DNA of 25,009 nucleotides from Patescibacteria group bacterium (GTDB taxonomy: Bacteria > Patescibacteriota > Minisyncoccia > Minisyncoccales > JAHIOY01): contig JAHIOY010000066.1 in NCBI GenBank assembly GCA_018894495.1, positions 1-25,009 on the forward strand. Reading direction: 5' to 3'. The translations under genes and the position numbers were made by a program. The number at the start of each line of letters is the position of its first letter. Positions within the stretch are counted from its first letter, which is position 1. This document shows positions 3,640-18,770 of this stretch, piece after piece. Under the pieces are notes generated by a model, which had not been told where the DNA came from, made no database searches, and was given only the letters and a program-made list of their open reading frames with translations.

Positions 3640-4329
3640 CTACCAACCTTTTTGTTCAAGCGCATTTTTGGCTGCTTTTTCTTCTGCCTCTTGTTTTGAA
3701 GAGCCATCGCCCTTGGCTATCAGTTCTTCGTCAAGAAAGACACCGATAATAAAATGTTTGGCATGGTCGGGTCCCCATTCTTCTAATGCCTTATAGCCGG
3801 GGGTAATCCCAACCCTTTCCTGAGATTCTTCCTGGAAACGCGATTTGTTGTCTCTAAAAAGCCCTTTTTCAATAATTTCCGGCAGTTCAATGATTAAATT
3901 TTTATCAACAAATTCTTTGGCAGCTCCATAACCTTGGTCAAGATAAGTCGCACCAATTAACGCTTCCAAAGTATTGGCTAAAATGTATTGCCTGGCTTTG
4001 CCGAGCTCTTTTTGTTCGCCTTTGGATAATAATAAAAAATCATTCAAACCGAGGTCTTTGGCAATTTGGGAAAGGGTTTTGGCGTTAACCAAAGAGGCTC
4101 TCCAGCTTGTCAACTCGCCCTCTGACTTTTTGGGGTAATTCCGGTAAATGTATTCGGTAACCGCTAACTCCAAGACCGCATCTCCTAAAAATTCAAGCCG
4201 CTCGTTGTGCGCCAAATAAAAATTCGGATTTTCGTTTAAATAAGAGCGATGAACAAATGCCTGCGTCAATAAGTCCTTATTGTTAAATTTTAAACCAAAT
4301 TTCTTTTCAAGTAAAGAAAAATCTTTCAT
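3640..4329 (-). CDS. rnc: Ribonuclease III
   Basis: [13 protein letters not shown] signature; C-terminal dsRBD (GPDHAKHF...[12 protein letters not shown]). Confidence 0.98.
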
Positions 4330-4736
4330 AGTTGTTTATAGACCGTCCCCAAGACGCCATTGATAAATTTCCCGGACCTGTCTCCGCCAAACGCCTTTGC
4401 CAATTCAATGGCTTCGTTTATCGCCACTTTTGACGGAACGGCTTTTTTATCTCCATATAGAACCTCATATAATCCGAGTCGCAAAATATTCCTGTCAACT
4501 ATGCTTATCTGTTCAATCGGCCATTCCGAAGCCGTTTTTTCAATAAGATTATCAATTTCTTTTAAATGTGAAAGGACGCCGTTCACTAATTGTAAAGCAA
4601 ATTCATCGCTCAGTCCCGGTCCAAATTCTTTAATGTTTCTTTCTAAGATTTTTTTTAGGTCTGCCTTCTTTTCGTAAAAATCCCATTCATATAAACTTTG
4701 GATAGCGATGGCGCGCGATAAATACCGGCTTGACAT
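4326..4736 (-). CDS. nusB: Transcription antitermination factor NusB
   Basis: [13 protein letters not shown]...VDRNILRLG...[14 protein letters not shown]...FINGVLG. Confidence 0.97.
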
Positions 4737-4745
4737 AAATTTCTA

Positions 4746-4876
4746 AAATCCGAAATTCGAATATCGAAATTCGAAACAAATCCAAATAATTAAAATTTAA
4801 AATTCTAAACCGGTTTAATTTTTTGAATTTAGAATTTAGATATTGTTTCGGATTTCGTGCTTCGTGCTTCGAATTT
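4746..4876. repeat. Heptamer hairpin (AAATTCG/AAGCACG type, 'family A') filling rpmF-nusB gap
   Basis: Imperfect ~60-bp stem; shares 20 identical nt (4852-4871 = 9018-9037) with the insertion in rnhB. Confidence 0.88.
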
Positions 4877-5156
4877 ATCTCTTGGAAAGTTCTTCCATAT
4901 TTAAGGGTTTTTCTTTTTTTATTCCTTTGCTTTCTTTCAGTTCCTTCTCTTTTCTCTTTTTTTCTTTTTTTGTCAATTTTTTAAAAACATCAATTACCTC
5001 CACTCCCTTGTAATAACCACAAAGAGGACAAACCCGATGGGGTAAAATTAATTTCGCGCATTTTTGGCATTTAACTAAAAAAGGGGTCTTCAAAAAAATA
5101 TGCATCCGCCTTTTATTCCTTCTTGATTTTGTATGTCTTTGAGTTTGAACAGCCAT
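4875..5156 (-). CDS. rpmF: 50S ribosomal protein L32 (zinc-ribbon type, Lys-rich C-terminal tail)
   Basis: MAVQTQRHTKSRRNKRR...CQKC...PHRVCPLCGYY. Confidence 0.96.
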   Translation of the reverse strand: MAVQTQRHTKSRRNKRRMHIFLKTPFLVKCQKCAKLILPHRVCPLCGYYKGVEVIDVFKKLTKKEKKRKEKELKESKGIKKEKPLNMEELSKR

Positions 5157-5165
5157 ATATACTAC

Positions 5166-5194
5166 ACTATAGCAGAAGTTATTTATTCATTCAA
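5166..5194 (-). promoter_or_regulatory. Putative promoter of rpmF-nusB-rnc-rpsP
   Basis: TTGAAT - 17 nt - TATAGT with extended TG; -10 ends 9 nt before the ATG. Confidence 0.55.
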
Positions 5195-5203
5195 GTTCTA
5201 AAA

Positions 5204-5231
5204 CCCCAATGGCCAAACCCCAATGCCCAAA
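5204..5231. repeat. Heptamer half-arm CCCCAAT-GGCCAAA-CCCCAAT-GCCCAAA
   Basis: Four 7-nt units at the downstream edge of the accessory island. Confidence 0.6.
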
Positions 5232-5254
5232 CTTCATAAGTTTAAAGTTCATTG

Positions 5255-5278
5255 TCTCGAAAACGAAAGTTTTCGAGA
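5255..5278. repeat. Perfect 10-bp hairpin TCTCGAAAAC-GAAA-GTTTTCGAGA (possible terminator or REP)
   Basis: Perfect inverted repeat downstream of DUF2283; no clear U-tract. Confidence 0.6.
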
Positions 5279-5310
5279 AACTTGACCAAGAATATCCTAT
5301 TTCCTTTTAG

Positions 5311-5544
5311 CTATTTGCCCGTAACAGAAATTGGTTGTAAATTCACTAATTCAAGATGTAGCTTTTTATATTTCCGTTTGCGAAGATATCTTTTGGCGTC
5401 AAGAATCTCTATCCCAACCACTGAACCATCAGGAGCATAGTTTATTGCTATGTCTTCGCTAATTCGCTGAGTGATCACTTGAAAATCGCCGTCTTTTAAA
5501 CGGATATAAGCAGCATCAACTTTTGGATCGTAAATTATTTTCAT
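5311..5544 (-). CDS. DUF2283 domain protein (putative antitoxin)
   Basis: MKIIYDPKVDAAYIRL...GSVVGIEILDA. Confidence 0.88.
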   Translation of the reverse strand: MKIIYDPKVDAAYIRLKDGDFQVITQRISEDIAINYAPDGSVVGIEILDAKRYLRKRKYKKLHLELVNLQPISVTGK

Positions 5545-5551
5545 AATTTTG

Positions 5552-5806
5552 TTAGAAATAAAATGTATAAACTGTAATCACGATGATTTTATTTTGTTCT
5601 TCTTTAATTATTGGCATTATTTGTTTAATTCGATAGAATTTCTTACTCCATCTTTTGTTGAATTAAAAATTTTTACGATAAGTATGGCGATTTTCTTTAA
5701 CTGGTAGTTTTTCACTTGTTCTAATAGTGTCTATGACTTCATCTCTTGTGGCTCCTCGTTCTTGCATTTGAAGTAAAGCATGATTTGAGAAAACAACCAG
5801 TTTCAT
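5552..5806 (-). pseudogene. DUF4258-like (RelE-like) toxin interrupted by in-frame TAA at 5663-5665
   Basis: Manual translation: MKLVVFSNHALLQMQERGATRDEVIDTIRT...YRKNF*FNKRWSKKFYRIKQIMPIIKEEQNKIIVITVYTFYF*; directly upstream of DUF2283. Confidence 0.8.
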
Positions 5807-5889
5807 TTAAATAGTCTATCAATTCAAAAACCAAAAGTCAAATTAAATAGCCGGATTATCAGTTTATTCTTGAATTCTTCGTTATTCAT
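5803..5889 (-). pseudogene. Possible N-terminal remnant of a four-helix-bundle (IVS-type) protein
   Basis: MNNEEFKNKLIIRLFNLTFGF*IDRLFK*; directly preceded by a heptamer arm. Family assignment is from remembered similarity only. Confidence 0.45.
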
Positions 5890-5890
5890 A

Positions 5891-5927
5891 AACTTTTAAC
5901 TTTGAACTTTGCACTTTTAACTTTGCA
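5891..5927. repeat. Family B single arm
   Basis: 5891-5922 is identical to 2701-2732 in the 16S V2 hairpin. Confidence 0.88.
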
Positions 5928-5955
5928 GGAGTCGGGTCTCTGTCGGTTTTTTGAC

Positions 5956-6186
5956 TTAATCTCGTGGGAATTTAATAAATTCTTCAATAGTTATATTTAT
6001 GTCATCTATAATTCCTTTTAAGGTTTTCCTGCCTATATCTTTTCCTGAATGAATGGGAACGGTTACTCTGCGACCATCAGAATGCTTAAATTGAGCATGG
6101 CTACCAACTTGATGATGTTTATAAAAACCGAGTTTAATTAAAACTTGAATTAGTTCTTTTGATCTCAGGACGGGTAGTTTCGGCAT
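5956..6186 (-). CDS. hicA: HicA family mRNA interferase toxin
   Basis: LGFYKHHQVGSHAQFKH...VTVPIH...IGRKTLKGI. Confidence 0.93.
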   Translation of the reverse strand: MPKLPVLRSKELIQVLIKLGFYKHHQVGSHAQFKHSDGRRVTVPIHSGKDIGRKTLKGIIDDINITIEEFIKFPRD

Positions 6187-6195
6187 TAAATTTAA

Positions 6196-6453
6196 TTAAG
6201 AAACAGGATTTAATTCTTTTTGAGAGAATGACTGGATAAATTCAAAAGCATCCTCTTCTCTGGGAATAGATTGTTTATCTTTTAACAATCCCTGGATATG
6301 ACATTTAATTGCCTCTCTAATATTTTTTTTTACTTCTTCAATGGTCTCGCCGCAAGTATGCAATCCCCTTAGAATAGGAACGAAACCATAATATCCTTTC
6401 GGCTCATCAGGTTCAATAATAACTCTAAATGTATAGGTATTAGAATATTTCAT
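6196..6453 (-). CDS. hicB: HicB family antitoxin (short form)
   Basis: YTFRVIIEPDE...VPILRGLHTCGETIEEVKKNIREAI. ATG at 6453 is preferred over the upstream TTG. Confidence 0.9.
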   Translation of the reverse strand: MKYSNTYTFRVIIEPDEPKGYYGFVPILRGLHTCGETIEEVKKNIREAIKCHIQGLLKDKQSIPREEDAFEFIQSFSQKELNPVS

Positions 6454-6460
6454 ATATTTA

Positions 6461-6489
6461 ATGTTAACAAATTGTGAAGATAAAATCAA
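6461..6489 (-). promoter_or_regulatory. Putative hicBA promoter
   Basis: TTGATT - 17 nt - TAACAT with extended TG; -10 is 7 nt before the ATG. Confidence 0.5.
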
Positions 6490-6704
6490 ATTTCAAAACA
6501 GAGTTGGAAAAAATAGAGTTGACCCCATTTTCTTTTCTGTTTTAAACAAGGGAAAATAGAGTTGACCCCGTTTTTTTTCGTTTTTAAAAGTTTTACAAAA
6601 TAAACGAAATCTTCCTTCTCCCGAAAAACTGTTTGTCGATTGTTTCCTCTATTAAGAACATGAAAAGGTAGGTTTGGAAGAGTAATTCGTAAGGGTCTTG
6701 GCAT
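6486..6704 (-). pseudogene. Truncated REP-associated tyrosine transposase (RAYT/Y1) N-terminus
   Basis: MPRPLRITLPNLPFHVLNRGNNRQTVFREKEDFVYFVKLL matches RAYT N-termini. Similarity stops after about 42 aa, before the HUH motif. Confidence 0.8.
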
Positions 6705-6780
6705 ATGGATCTATCATAACGCAAATTGTTAAATTAAATAGAGTTGACACCTATTTCTCACCTTCACCTATTTCTCACCT
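6510..6780. repeat. Three copies of AAATAGAGTTGAC(C/A)CC (6510-6526, 6553-6569, 6736-6751) plus tandem CACCTATTTCTCACCT x2 (6748-6780)
   Basis: Direct repeats bracketing the RAYT fragment. Confidence 0.8.
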
Positions 6781-6880
6781 TTTTTTAACTAATAGTGGTA
6801 TTCCCTTAACTCCACCACCCATCGGAGCCTCGCGTGAAGTGCTCGTCGAGACGGTGGCACACTGTGCATACCCCTATTAG

Positions 6881-7972
6881 CTAATGACAACCGATCTCCA
6901 CCCTATTGGTTGAGGGATTGCCGATGGTGCAGACATTAGAGCAATATATTGATGGGGGTCCGACGTCGTACCATTTGCTCCATTGGTTATATAAGCAGTC
7001 ACCGCAGTTGACGGGGCCGAAGCCGGCGCCGCAGTTATATTTTTGGATTGCGGCGGTGTTGGACCACGTGGTGGGGCCACTAGATATGTTGCCCCCGCAG
7101 CTGTCGCCGCCCCATGTGGCGATTGTATAGCGTTGCCAACTGGCTGCTTGTATCCATGTAGCCGGGCAGTCGGTGGCCGTATATTTACAGAAAGTATATG
7201 TGCCATCTGTGACTATTATTCCACCTCCTTCTGTGCATAGCACTTCGTTGTGCGTTGAACCAGGGTATGTCAGAGGTAATGGGGGCGTTGCGCTTACTTC
7301 AGCAGATTTGACACCTTCGCCAATTGCGTTAATTGCCGAGACTTTGTAATAATAAGTGCCGCCGGTAAGGGCTGTATCGGTGAAAGAAGTAGCGGCTGAA
7401 CCAACATTAGTAAGATAAATTTCCGAGCCGGAAGAAATACTCCTGTAAACCTTGTAATCCGTAATGGCCCTGCCATTATCAGTTGGAGCAGACCAAGACA
7501 GAGAGACTTGGGAATTGCCGGGGGTAGCTGAGAGGTTGGTGACTTGGGAAGGCGCCGCGGCACCGCTCGTCAAGATGACATACGACTGGCCGTTTATGGA
7601 AACTTTGAGGTCTTTAGTAGTAGGGTCAAGATAAATCACTGCTTGATTTGGAGATGAAACTGCTGGTTGAGATATTGCCCTAAAAATCATTGCTCCATTT
7701 ACATCTAGCTTCGCCCCCGGGATTGTCGTCCCGATGCCGACATTGCCGTAAGGAACCAAGAGTCCATTAGCTAAAGTTCCGTCGGTATTTAACATTAGAT
7801 TACCTTGTTTGGATTGACCTATGGGACCAGCATTGATTGGGGCCGAGACATTGCCTGCTGGCGGGGCTGATGTTGGTTCTGTCCATGCATAAATGATAGC
7901 CACCACAAGGAGAGTGGCAATGACGATAGCTGGCAAGCCAGCCAAGAAAACTGACTTTATTTTTTGAAACAT
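6881..7972 (-). CDS. Membrane-anchored surface protein: N-terminal TM, WTEP..PP.GN..AP module, GNVGIGTT repeat, fibronectin type III domain, Cys-rich C-terminal domain
   Basis: Hydrophobic N-terminus; FN3 pattern PSQVTNLSATPGNSQVSLSWSAP...YKVYR...FTDT...YYYKVSAIN; many Cys in the last ~120 aa. Confidence 0.85.
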   Translation of the reverse strand: MFQKIKSVFLAGLPAIVIATLLVVAIIYAWTEPTSAPPAGNVSAPINAGPIGQSKQGNLMLNTDGTLANGLLVPYGNVGIGTTIPGAKLDVNGAMIFRAISQPAVSSPNQAVIYLDPTTKDLKVSINGQSYVILTSGAAAPSQVTNLSATPGNSQVSLSWSAPTDNGRAITDYKVYRSISSGSEIYLTNVGSAATSFTDTALTGGTYYYKVSAINAIGEGVKSAEVSATPPLPLTYPGSTHNEVLCTEGGGIIVTDGTYTFCKYTATDCPATWIQAASWQRYTIATWGGDSCGGNISSGPTTWSNTAAIQKYNCGAGFGPVNCGDCLYNQWSKWYDVGPPSIYCSNVCTIGNPSTNRVEIGCH

Positions 7973-8050
7973 GGTTTTTTAAAATTTTTAATTTCTAATT
8001 CTTCAATTTTTAAACGGGAAATCTGATTGAAAATTTTATTGTTGCGACCT

Positions 8051-8380
8051 TTATTTTGGCGGGGTTAATTTCTTTAAAATTTCTTCAGCGGTTTTTGAAG
8101 TTTCTTTTGTTGGAGAAGAGAGATTCTTAAAGGTCTCTTCCAAGTCCTTTCTTTCTTTTTCAGAAAGGGGTTGAGGCGGAGTTAGAGCTCTTAAAATCTC
8201 TTGAGGGGTTTTTTCTTTTTTAATTTTGATAATGGGCTGATAGATTTCTTTTTCAATTTCTGGCATTCTTGAGAAACGCCATATTAAGACAAAAGAAATT
8301 AAACTAACTAAAATAATAATGCTAAAATAGAGAAAGGATTTTTTGTCTTTTGTTGATTGAAATTTTAGAGTTTTCCACAT
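8051..8380 (-). CDS. Small membrane-anchored hypothetical protein
   Basis: One TM segment; duplicated motif KTxxEILxxLTPP. Confidence 0.75.
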   Translation of the reverse strand: MWKTLKFQSTKDKKSFLYFSIIILVSLISFVLIWRFSRMPEIEKEIYQPIIKIKKEKTPQEILRALTPPQPLSEKERKDLEETFKNLSSPTKETSKTAEEILKKLTPPK

Positions 8381-8381
8381 C

Positions 8382-9170
8382 TTATATTAAAATACTCTTA
8401 ACTGGTTCAAATGTCAAACGGTGAATAGCCGAGGGGCCATATTTTTTTAGCATAGCCCGATGTTTTTTTGTTGGATATCCTTTGTGTTGGGCAAAACCAT
8501 ATTGGGGGTATTTCTTGTGATACCTTTTCATTATTTTATCCCGCCAGACCTTTGCCAAAATGCTTGCCGCGGCGCAGGAAAAAACTTTTTCATCTCCTTT
8601 GATAATTGACTTTTGAGGGATTTTCACATCAATTTTAAAGTTCCCATCTAAAATTAAAAAATCAACCTTACCACTTAACCAGCGATCGCCGTTTAAGTGG
8701 TAAAATTGGTGACAGCCCGCCCTCTGCAATTTTTTTCCTAAGTTTTTAATTGCTTTAATCATCGCCAATTTCGTCGCCTCCAAAATGTTAATTTTATCAA
8801 TCACTTTTTCTGAAACCCTGCCTATCCCCCACTCAATTTTAGGATGCGTAGTTAATATCTTATAGAATTTTTCTCGCGCCTTTGGAGAAAGTTTCTTAGA
8901 GTCACGAAGTTTTAAATCCGAAATCCGAAATCCGAAATCCGAAACAATATTTAAATTCAAAATTCTAAATTCTAAACTGTTTTGAATTTGGGATTTAGAT
9001 ATTAGGATTTGTTTCGAATTTCGTGCTTCGTGCTTCGGATTTTTAATCATTACTGCCCCTGCGACTACCGGTCCTGCGAGCGGACCTCTCCCTACCTCAT
9101 CTAATCCCACCACTCTTTTATATCCCCTTCTCCATAATTTTCTTTCTTCAAAAAAATTTGGATATTTCAT
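8382..9170 (-). CDS. rnhB: Ribonuclease HII with two in-frame hairpin-derived insertions
   Basis: GLDEVGRGPLAGPVVA, RDSKKLS, DG, KGDEK..SCAAASILAKV.RD, HKGYPT motifs. Confidence 0.96.
   Translation of the reverse strand: MKYPNFFEERKLWRRGYKRVVGLDEVGRGPLAGPVVAGAVMIKNPKHEARNSKQILISKSQIQNSLEFRILNLNIVSDFGFRISDLKLRDSKKLSPKAREKFYKILTTHPKIEWGIGRVSEKVIDKINILEATKLAMIKAIKNLGKKLQRAGCHQFYHLNGDRWLSGKVDFLILDGNFKIDVKIPQKSIIKGDEKVFSCAAASILAKVWRDKIMKRYHKKYPQYGFAQHKGYPTKKHRAMLKKYGPSAIHRLTFEPVKSILI
8913..9044. repeat. Family A heptamer hairpin inserted in frame in rnhB (about 44 codons)
   Basis: (aaatccg)x4 arm and ttcgtgcttcgtgcttcgg arm; encodes KNPKHEARNSKQ...SDFGFRISDL. Confidence 0.88.
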
Positions 9171-9270: not shown

Positions 9271-9293
9271 ATGTTGAGGTTAGACCTCAACAT
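9271..9293. repeat. REP-like hairpin ATGTTGAGGT-TAG-ACCTCAACAT
   Basis: Perfect 10-bp stem; homolog at 18769-18793. Confidence 0.8.
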
Positions 9294-17847: not shown

Positions 17848-18770
17848 AAAAACTCATTGTTATTTTAGGACCAACGGCTGCGGGAAAAACTGAATTGGCG
17901 ATTAGATTAGCTAAAAAATTTGACGGCGAGATCGTTTCGGCCGATTCAAGGCAGGTCTATCGGGGAATGAATATCGGAACCGGCAAAATTACTAAGAAAG
18001 GCAGGGGCGGTATCCCCCACGAGCTTTTAGATGTTGCCAGTCCGAAAAGAAGGTTTACAGTTACTCAATATCAAAAATTGGCTCTTAAAGCATTAGAAAA
18101 GATTTTTAAAAAAGGAAAAATTCCGATTTTAGTTGGCGGAACAGGATTTTATATTCAAGCCGTAGTTGATGGGATAGTTATCCCCGAAGTAAGGCCGAAT
18201 TGGCGGTTGAGGTCTAACCTCAACAAACTTCCCGTTGAGGAACTTTATAAAATCTTAAAAAAACTTGACCCCAAAAGGGCGAAGACAATTGAAAAGGAAA
18301 ACCCAAGAAGATTGATTAGGGCAATTGAAATTGTAAAGAAAACAAAAAATCCAGTTCCGCCATTAAAATTCAATCCTCTCCCCTACCCTGTTTTGATGCT
18401 CGGAATTAAGAGACCAAAAAAAGAATTGGAAGAAAAAATAAAAAAAAGATTTTTTGAGTGGCTAAAAAGAGGGCTCATTTTGGAAGCAATAAAATTAAGG
18501 AAAATGGGGCTCTCTTTCAAAAGGATTGAAGAATTTGGAATGCACTATAGAGAAATTGCAAAATATTTACAAAATAAAATAGATGAAAAAGAAATGATTG
18601 AGAATTCGATAAAAGAAATCCAAAACTATGCTAAACGGCAAATGACTTGGTTTAAGCGCGACCCCGCACCAGAACCTTCGATTCGGTACGGGGCAGGCAA
18701 AAGAATTCTTTGGGTTCAAAATTACCGAATGGCAGAAAAATTAGTAAAAAATTTTTTGAAAAAAAAATAA
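17844..18770 (+). CDS. miaA: tRNA dimethylallyltransferase
   Basis: GPTAAGKT, SADSRQVYRGM.IGTGK, GGTGFY, YAKRQMTWF; ATGA overlap with the miaB stop. Confidence 0.97.
   Translation: MKKLIVILGPTAAGKTELAIRLAKKFDGEIVSADSRQVYRGMNIGTGKITKKGRGGIPHELLDVASPKRRFTVTQYQKLALKALEKIFKKGKIPILVGGTGFYIQAVVDGIVIPEVRPNWRLRSNLNKLPVEELYKILKKLDPKRAKTIEKENPRRLIRAIEIVKKTKNPVPPLKFNPLPYPVLMLGIKRPKKELEEKIKKRFFEWLKRGLILEAIKLRKMGLSFKRIEEFGMHYREIAKYLQNKIDEKEMIENSIKEIQNYAKRQMTWFKRDPAPEPSIRYGAGKRILWVQNYRMAEKLVKNFLKKK

Follow-up and report, generated by a model that had tools for sequence, protein, structure and literature searches.

The window, i.e. the whole stretch of 25,009 nt that was analysed (contig C48), is part of a 1.01-Mb metagenome-assembled genome (G000 hereafter; 154 contigs, 37% GC, 89% complete). 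The host is a tiny groundwater-type CPR bacterium, and its closest RNase HII proteins are named in the sources as Candidatus Nealsonbacteria or Parcubacteria, which are CPR bacteria. The window carries rnhB (encoding RNase HII) with a palindromic element inside its reading frame, and a second copy of the same element family between rpmF and nusB (encoding L32 and NusB, respectively). The features concerned are the following:

8382..9170, minus strand: rnhB ORF (RNase HII), 262 aa from start M1
9084..9101, minus strand: DEVGRG motif, aa 24-29, with the catalytic residues D24 and E25, upstream of the large insert
8913..9044, minus strand: palindromic element with heptamer arms, 132 nt, in frame, encoding aa 43-86
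9009..9042, minus strand: 5' outer arm of the element (coding strand), AAATCCG-type units including two GCACGAA, then the joint AAACAA; encodes NPKHEARNSKQ
8952..9004, minus strand: inner arms and loop (loop at about 8972-8982), the section that is inverted relative to the rpmF-nusB copy
8914..8947, minus strand: 3' outer arm (coding strand), four times CGGATTT; encodes the hydrophobic half ...SDFGFRISDL
8895..8903, minus strand: DSK motif, aa 90-92, three residues past the large insert
8679..8729, minus strand: second, smaller in-frame insert, aa 148-164, low pLDDT (<50)
4745..4877, minus strand: intergenic copy of the family, filling the whole rpmF-nusB spacer, in the minority ('flipped') configuration

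The rnhB product matches the Pfam family RNase_HII (PF01351) well above threshold (E 2.4e-32; 112.9 bits, with the cut-off at 25.8), but the insert divides the match into two stretches. The alignment to the RNase HII of T. maritima falls into three pieces (query residues 11-43, 88-147 and 165-261, with a break at residues 44-87), so that the protein has two inserts. D24, E25, G27-R28-G29, D90-S91-K92, D125, D175 and Y232 are invariant among 39 homologues and align to the T. maritima enzyme, and the HKGY motif (aa 229-232) is invariant in the same comparison, in agreement with the claim of the first-pass annotation that the frame and all catalytic motifs are intact. The roles of the catalytic acidic residues and of the GRG, DSK and Tyr motifs we take to be those of the RNase HII family in general. 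The public gene call (P0002, 222 aa) begins at M41, just ahead of the element, and thereby drops the DEVGRG motif with D24 and E25. As the N-terminus is conserved among the homologues, M1 is the real start and the start at M41 is probably an artefact of the gene caller. The second insert site varies in length from 18 to 62 aa among the homologues, and a short hairpin at 8670-8701 (ACCACTTAA ... TTAAGTGGT, a 9-bp stem with GCGATCGC in the loop) overlaps the low-coordinate end of the second insert.

In an AlphaFold model, made with the 39-sequence alignment, the core reaches a pLDDT of about 84-96 and a helix is predicted at residues 66-78. Values of pLDDT under 50 are confined to residues 47-86 and 154-167. 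This is not to be read as proof of a harmless disordered loop, and the insert adjoins the DSK substrate-contact motif. A Foldseek search against the PDB returned RNase HII structures as the best matches (3o3f, 7uwh and 5y9p; TM-scores ranging from 0.76 to 0.87; 3o3f_A with E 5.7e-18 and TMt 0.76, 7uwh_C with TMt 0.87), so that the RNase H-like fold is present. The model thus suggests, as had been proposed from the sequence at first sight, that the insert sits in a loop that the fold can tolerate.

The element at 8913-9044 is free of stops in the rnhB frame and takes the place of a loop of about 5 residues in the T. maritima enzyme, a net gain of about 39 aa. It folds as one long imperfect hairpin of -42.2 kcal/mol (z -6.3; none of 200 shuffled sequences was equally stable). 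The reading of the segment as a hairpin that lies in frame within RNase HII is thereby confirmed. A repeat placed in rnhB by the assembler might look the same, since the element is repeated and the genome is a MAG in 154 contigs. However, a second, independent public assembly that is 99.58% identical across 8,397 nt without gaps has the identical insert, which excludes misassembly of this segment. Moreover, orthologues from NCBI, JGI and ENA assemblies carry the insert at the same codon, and in rnhB itself the frame and both flanks are continuous. We therefore give an assembly artefact practically no weight.

We found the rnhB element to be one of 15 copies of 111-151 nt in G000, next to about 17 shorter pieces of the same family. 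These are AT-rich palindromes of about 130 nt, the arms of which are runs of 7-base units in a fixed module order: outer AAATYCG units with interspersed GCACGAA or AATATCG units, the joint AAACAA, inner ATTCNAA-type units and a short loop. Most full copies occupy an intergenic spacer, where they touch the adjacent stop or start codon. The family is present in 56 of the 201 sampled genomes of the order (E<=1e-8), with up to 88% identity. An ungapped palindrome scan reported only 23 hairpins in G000 and was replaced by a gapped self-alignment scan, which yielded 130 strong hairpins, of which 114 fall outside long ORFs. Within protein-coding ORFs, no hairpin but the rnhB copy is longer than 80 nt. 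Single arms of 52-72 nt do occur in frame in other G000 genes, i.e. those for TsaE, SecA, TopA, a GatA-type amidase, the CCA-adding enzyme, a radical-SAM protein and TsaD, and in a 440-aa ORF. In all of these (8/8 in G000, and 4/4 in genome G006, of another GTDB family) the A-rich strand is the coding strand, and the peptides encoded are rich in K, N, S, P, Q, E and I.

A comparison of the G006 copies with the orthologous sites in G000 showed that the rnhB site is common to both. At one other site G006 has a copy and G000 has none, the two forms being too diverged for a target-site duplication to be read. At four G006 sites of the AAATCCG family, G000 has intergenic hairpins of similar size made of another unit family (AAAAATG / AAAAACT; C13:4588-4700, C58:3046-3161, C86:12939-13067 and C132:1678-1798). 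As the position of the hairpin is kept while the unit family differs, permissive sites are reused or their content is overwritten. In topA, different elements have made use of one permissive site: the codon position that holds a GC-rich in-frame hairpin in G000 (C139:6390-6432) is occupied in G006 by a single A-rich arm from the heptamer family (L062:3001-3063).

The copy at 4745-4877 overlaps the rpmF stop codon and ends 8 nt ahead of the nusB start. Its outer arm is identical to that of the rnhB copy and has the same orientation (9018-9037 equals 4852-4871 at 20/20 positions), as had been noted before. The inner segment had been described as inverted between the two, and this also holds: the marker at the arm joint is swapped, the GCACGAA arm going with AAACAAATCC in rnhB and with AAACAATATC in the rpmF-nusB copy, from which it follows that the interior is inverted relative to the outer arms. 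When every copy was oriented with its GCACGAA arm at the 5' side, this arm was found joined to AAACAAAT in six G000 and eight G006 copies, both rnhB copies among them, and to AAACAATAT in four copies of G000, among them 4745-4877, and in two of G006. The rnhB copy thus has the majority configuration and the rpmF-nusB copy the minority one. Both sites vary among lineages. The rnhB insert of orthologue P0016 has the second configuration (the AAACAATAT type), and that of P0017, with an unchanged interior, has its GCACGAA units in the 3' arm. The rpmF-nusB copy is of the first configuration in the genome of P0016 and of the second in G000. Interior and outer arms therefore flip their relative orientation in place, and do so repeatedly, so that the interior flips are a real and recurrent property of the element family. 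The first-pass annotation had taken the inversion to point to hairpin-driven template switching or recombination; the inversion stands, and its mechanism may be either of these (recombination between the inverted arms, or template switching at the hairpin) or conversion from an oppositely aligned copy, three routes that leave the same trace.

The distance between the DE(x)GRG and DSK motifs was determined in the 120 nearest homologues, a gap of at least 45 aa being taken as insert-bearing against a baseline of 29-35. It is 45-91 residues in 60 of them, with modes at 55 and 66-67, and 27-44 in the other 60. All of the long loops read as the rnhB element, e.g. NPK[FHS][EK]A[LR]NPKQ ... SN[FL]GFRI[SL][DN]L. 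The alignment of orthologues proposed in the first-pass annotation thus did reveal a loop of similar length, but this loop is the repeat itself and not a sequence unrelated to it. In G006, the RNase HII of which shares 62-66% of its amino acids, the homologous insert lies at the same codon, in the same configuration and with 81% nucleotide identity. The recent insertion that had first been assumed is contradicted by this distribution, given that the same site is occupied in half of the nearest homologues and in a different GTDB family. On a tree of the RNase HII core, presence of the insert can be explained with 28 changes, whereas shuffled labels give 40.4 (and never fewer than 32). Presence is thus clustered but very homoplastic, as for an insert that is inherited and often trimmed or lost; the tree is short and quickly built, for which reason gains and losses were not counted from it. 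The shorter versions of the insert retain the outer arms and have lost the centre, as expected for palindrome-centred deletions. Two orthologues have GC-rich secondary hairpins nested, in frame, in an arm of the heptamer element (L072 10115-10333 for P0026 and L073 10115-10342 for P0119), and in P0119 the nested GC-rich unit recurs in the second variable loop of its own RNase HII (L073 10507-10626).

Whether a whole element ever entered rnhB can be questioned. The loop may have grown on the spot by 7-base slippage and palindrome formation (snap-back or template switching) and may then have been made to resemble the dispersed copies by gene conversion, with no insertion at all. Orthologues free of the insert already show heptamer-like coding at the loop (e.g. 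KNPKFQIQNL), which makes local growth at the rnhB site possible; the length of the insert is continuous from 45 to 91 aa, and the different unit families of G000 and G006 at several kept hairpin sites indicate that conversion-like replacement occurs. Furthermore, neither a target-site duplication nor an empty and filled pair close enough to reveal an insertion was found at the rnhB site among the genomes compared. Nevertheless, the full module order is common to the rnhB copy, to unrelated sites and to 56 genomes, and the site that is filled in G006 and empty in G000 indicates that whole elements are gained or lost. We consider a purely local origin unlikely.

The pattern of conservation within the insert differs clearly from that of the gene around it. 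Among nine orthologues, identity at codon positions 1, 2 and 3 is 68.6, 73.3 and 68.2% in the insert and 72.7, 78.9 and 47.3% in the flanks, and at the amino acid level the insert reaches 49.7% identity and the flanks 64.8%. This flat profile in the insert, next to a coding-like one in the flanks, implies that the insert evolves as a nucleic acid and the flanks as a protein. It is, on these comparisons, the nucleotide sequence of the element that is conserved, the peptide being a passenger. The numbers bear directly on the idea that the 44-aa loop is an adaptive module that gives RNase HII a new property, for instance an arm that binds a partner or nucleic acid. Its long retention, its position next to the DSK motif and the predicted helix would fit such a role. 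Yet the peptide is less conserved than its flanks, while its third codon positions are more so; in addition, many close homologues lack the insert or have heavily trimmed versions, its pLDDT stays below 50, and the arms swap sides between orthologues, which alters the peptide. An adaptive module thus seems very improbable.

Conservation of the pairing is a separate matter. RNAalifold, applied to seven orthologous inserts, recovered only a local stem of 10 pairs, because slippage of the units spoils the alignment, and was replaced by projection of the G000 fold onto the alignment. In the projected hairpin 78% of the cells pair, against 18-59% in shifted controls. Double changes were seen in only 5 cells, against 6 in the +1 shifted control, and the variable seventh position of the unit often mispairs. 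With so few compensatory changes we make no claim of selection for pairing; it is the unit sequence of both arms, and not pairing itself, that has been retained.

Conservation at the level of nucleotides and not of protein would also fit a function in RNA, and the first-pass annotation had suggested that the insert might be removed at the RNA level. The hairpin in the rnhB mRNA could be cut by RNase III and be excised or, more plausibly, lower expression as a post-transcriptional brake, which might also come on top of read-through. The stability of the fold, the presence of an RNase III gene (rnc) in the window, the occurrence of the same family within the 23S rRNA gene and the cleavage by RNase III of the inverted-repeat stems of rRNA intervening sequences in other bacteria (PMC4990558) all speak for this possibility. 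Against it stands above all the state of the reading frame. In 11 orthologues for which DNA was available, the insert-region segments, cut identically in all, measure 117, 120, 153, 156, 219 or 228 nt, and all 11 are multiples of three and free of stops. Excision would need neither of these, so that removal at the RNA level is unlikely. Nor are the two properties built into the family, an open frame being rare in other copies: only 11 of 84 frames (13%) are open in the other 14 full copies and only 4 of the 14 lengths are multiples of three, while the rnhB copy is open in just one of its six frames, the one used by rnhB. The single arms in other ORFs are in frame as well although they cannot form the hairpin. 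From these findings we infer that the rnhB insert is read through and translated. The scarcity of compensatory changes argues in the same direction, and we know of no ligation activity that would rejoin a bacterial mRNA after cleavage by RNase III. In all, a role or removal at the RNA level has a small probability, and the insert is most likely translated as an extra floppy loop.

Two family copies lie inside the 23S rRNA gene of G000 (C122 (L067) 4159-8475), at 5075-5225 and 6577-6708, near positions of about 590 and about 1772 of the Rfam model. The gene measures 4,317 nt against the 2,925 positions of the model; near 5925-5990 another unit family apparently forms a hairpin, and a LAGLIDADG ORF within the gene (7183-7686) suggests an intron. 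A link with PF05635, the 23S rRNA intervening-sequence protein, was found as well. In G006 the only PF05635-like ORF lies between two arms of the rnhB-insert family; on this single ORF, just under the Pfam cut-off (32.7 bits against 33.8) and with a decayed C-terminus, the link for the family itself depends. In G000 (89% complete) no family copy with a PF05635 ORF in its loop was found. Four PF05635 genes or fragments in that genome do adjoin runs of short (about 7-base) repeat units, and at two of the loci (C150 and C89) heptamer arms from other unit families stand on either side in inverted orientation. Inverted unit-repeat arms were seen at 14 of 28 PF05635 loci examined in the order. PF05635 itself occurs in 96 of the 201 genomes, i.e. 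in 44 of the 56 with the element and in 52 of the 145 without it (Fisher OR 6.6, from a hand tally in which related genomes are not independent).

Among the possible movers considered, no enzyme could be assigned to the family. No reverse transcriptase (PF00078) was found in G000 (89% complete). The genome contains seven genes for RAYT-like Y1 transposases (PF01797, 184-330 aa; C86:6632-7366 and on six other contigs). As a mover of the rnhB-insert family these were rejected, for the readable RAYT flanks show other short GC-rich palindromes and none of that family. Wherever the flanks were readable, each of these genes is adjoined by a short GC-rich palindrome of its own, on both sides for four of them. 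These palindromes are dispersed, with about 22 copies of GTTGAGGTyNNACCTCAAC; two of the copies lie in the window (9273-9291 and 18206-18224), and rnhB has one of the two directly upstream. A 1-Mb CPR genome thus seems to contain several systems of the REP/RAYT type.

Taken together, we propose that the rnhB insert is an old, inherited and translated copy, without a gene of its own, of a family that resembles the stems of rRNA intervening sequences, its peptide being a passenger and the core of the enzyme being intact; we put the probability of this reading at roughly three in four. The rnhB segment is one gene-less copy of the AT-rich palindromic elements of about 130 nt with arms of 7-base units, a family that would behave like the stem of an rRNA intervening sequence, being found in spacers, in a 23S gene and, in one loop, with a PF05635-like ORF. 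Long ago, before the families of this CPR order split, one copy would have landed in the RNase HII loop that connects the strand after DEVGRG with the DSK motif. It would have been inherited ever since, repeatedly trimmed from the centre and flipped in place, and would persist because its length is divisible by three and the frame of its host runs through it without a stop. Read through by the ribosome, it would yield a loop of about 44 aa, hydrophilic where the A-rich arm is translated and hydrophobic where the T-rich arm is, and the enzyme core would stay intact. What was first observed at this locus is confirmed and the interpretation first given to it is supported in part: judged by sequence, an inherited and old palindromic element, similar to intervening sequences and to the Rickettsia palindromic elements and translated with rnhB, is the most likely description.

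With considerably more reserve, we consider that the heptamer-armed hairpins might form one undescribed, long-lived class of CPR elements that would unite the PF05635 rRNA intervening sequences, REP-like hairpins and inserts like the Rickettsia palindromic elements, and that would be recognised and homogenised by a trans-acting factor while the interior flip-flops in place. The identity of 75-88% across family-level divergence, even at rnhB third positions, together with the swap of unit families at kept sites, would in that case imply such recognition or homogenisation. The factor would possibly be the PF05635-type four-helix-bundle protein. We regard this wider unification as tentative and rather less probable than not.

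The analysis adds to the first description the depth of the rnhB orthologues, the codon-position test, the frame statistics, the 23S copies of the family and the repeated flips in place. Essential enzymes of ultra-small bacteria can evidently harbour repeat DNA for a very long time, and gene callers mishandle such genes, as P0002, which lacks two catalytic residues, illustrates. The occurrence of one element family in a protein, in rRNA and in spacers makes it a natural test case for rRNA intervening sequences and for the widespread PF05635 gene. The comparison of codon positions is a simple and reusable way to separate a passenger peptide from a selected domain, and the flip polymorphism at orthologous sites indicates that long palindromes in CPR genomes recombine or convert in place.

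Our literature searches on hairpins or in-frame palindromic repeats in CPR/Patescibacteria returned no description of such elements, and several systems known from other bacteria are comparable in part. MITEs (e.g. ERIC, BOX and Correia) are small non-autonomous repeats that sometimes give in-frame fusions (PMC10969869). The present family shares with them that a small repeat occasionally lies in ORFs, but here the whole element is one palindrome instead of a sequence with short terminal inverted repeats, and neither a target-site duplication nor a parent transposon was seen. In REPIN/REP-RAYT systems extragenic hairpins consist of two inverted halves (PMC3116915, PMC3337134). The present family likewise forms hairpins from two inverted halves, leaves singlet remnants, persists vertically for long and has many copies that abut the ends of genes; unlike in those systems, however, the seven RAYT-like (PF01797) genes of the host have, in the flanks that were readable, other short GC-rich palindromes next to them and no copy of this family.

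The 23S rRNA intervening sequences with an S23p/PF05635 ORF, as in Coxiella and Leptospira, have inverted-repeat stems that are cut by RNase III (PMC4990558). The long inverted-repeat stem and the location in 23S (two family copies) are points of likeness. The small four-helix-bundle ORF that some intervening sequences have in the loop may be another, given the decayed PF05635-like ORF of one G006 copy. Classical intervening sequences have been described in rRNA only, whereas the ORF-less rnhB stem lies in the coding region of an mRNA and must be read through, and the arms of its family, unlike theirs, are unit repeats.

The Rickettsia palindromic elements (RPE; Ogata et al. 2000, as summarised in PMC10969869) are palindromic repeats that lie in frame in housekeeping genes and are presumed to be translated. 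In both cases dispersed palindromic repeats of about 100-150 bp occur in a small genome, both between genes and in frame within unrelated housekeeping genes, and are thought to be translated where this is compatible with the protein fold. The rnhB-insert family differs in its host phylum (CPR), in the tandem 7-base units of its arms, in having copies in an rRNA gene and an association with a PF05635 ORF, and in having single-arm copies and a nucleotide sequence that stays highly conserved between families. Compared by description and not by sequence, the rnhB element appears to work most like an RPE, as an analogue and not as a member of that family.
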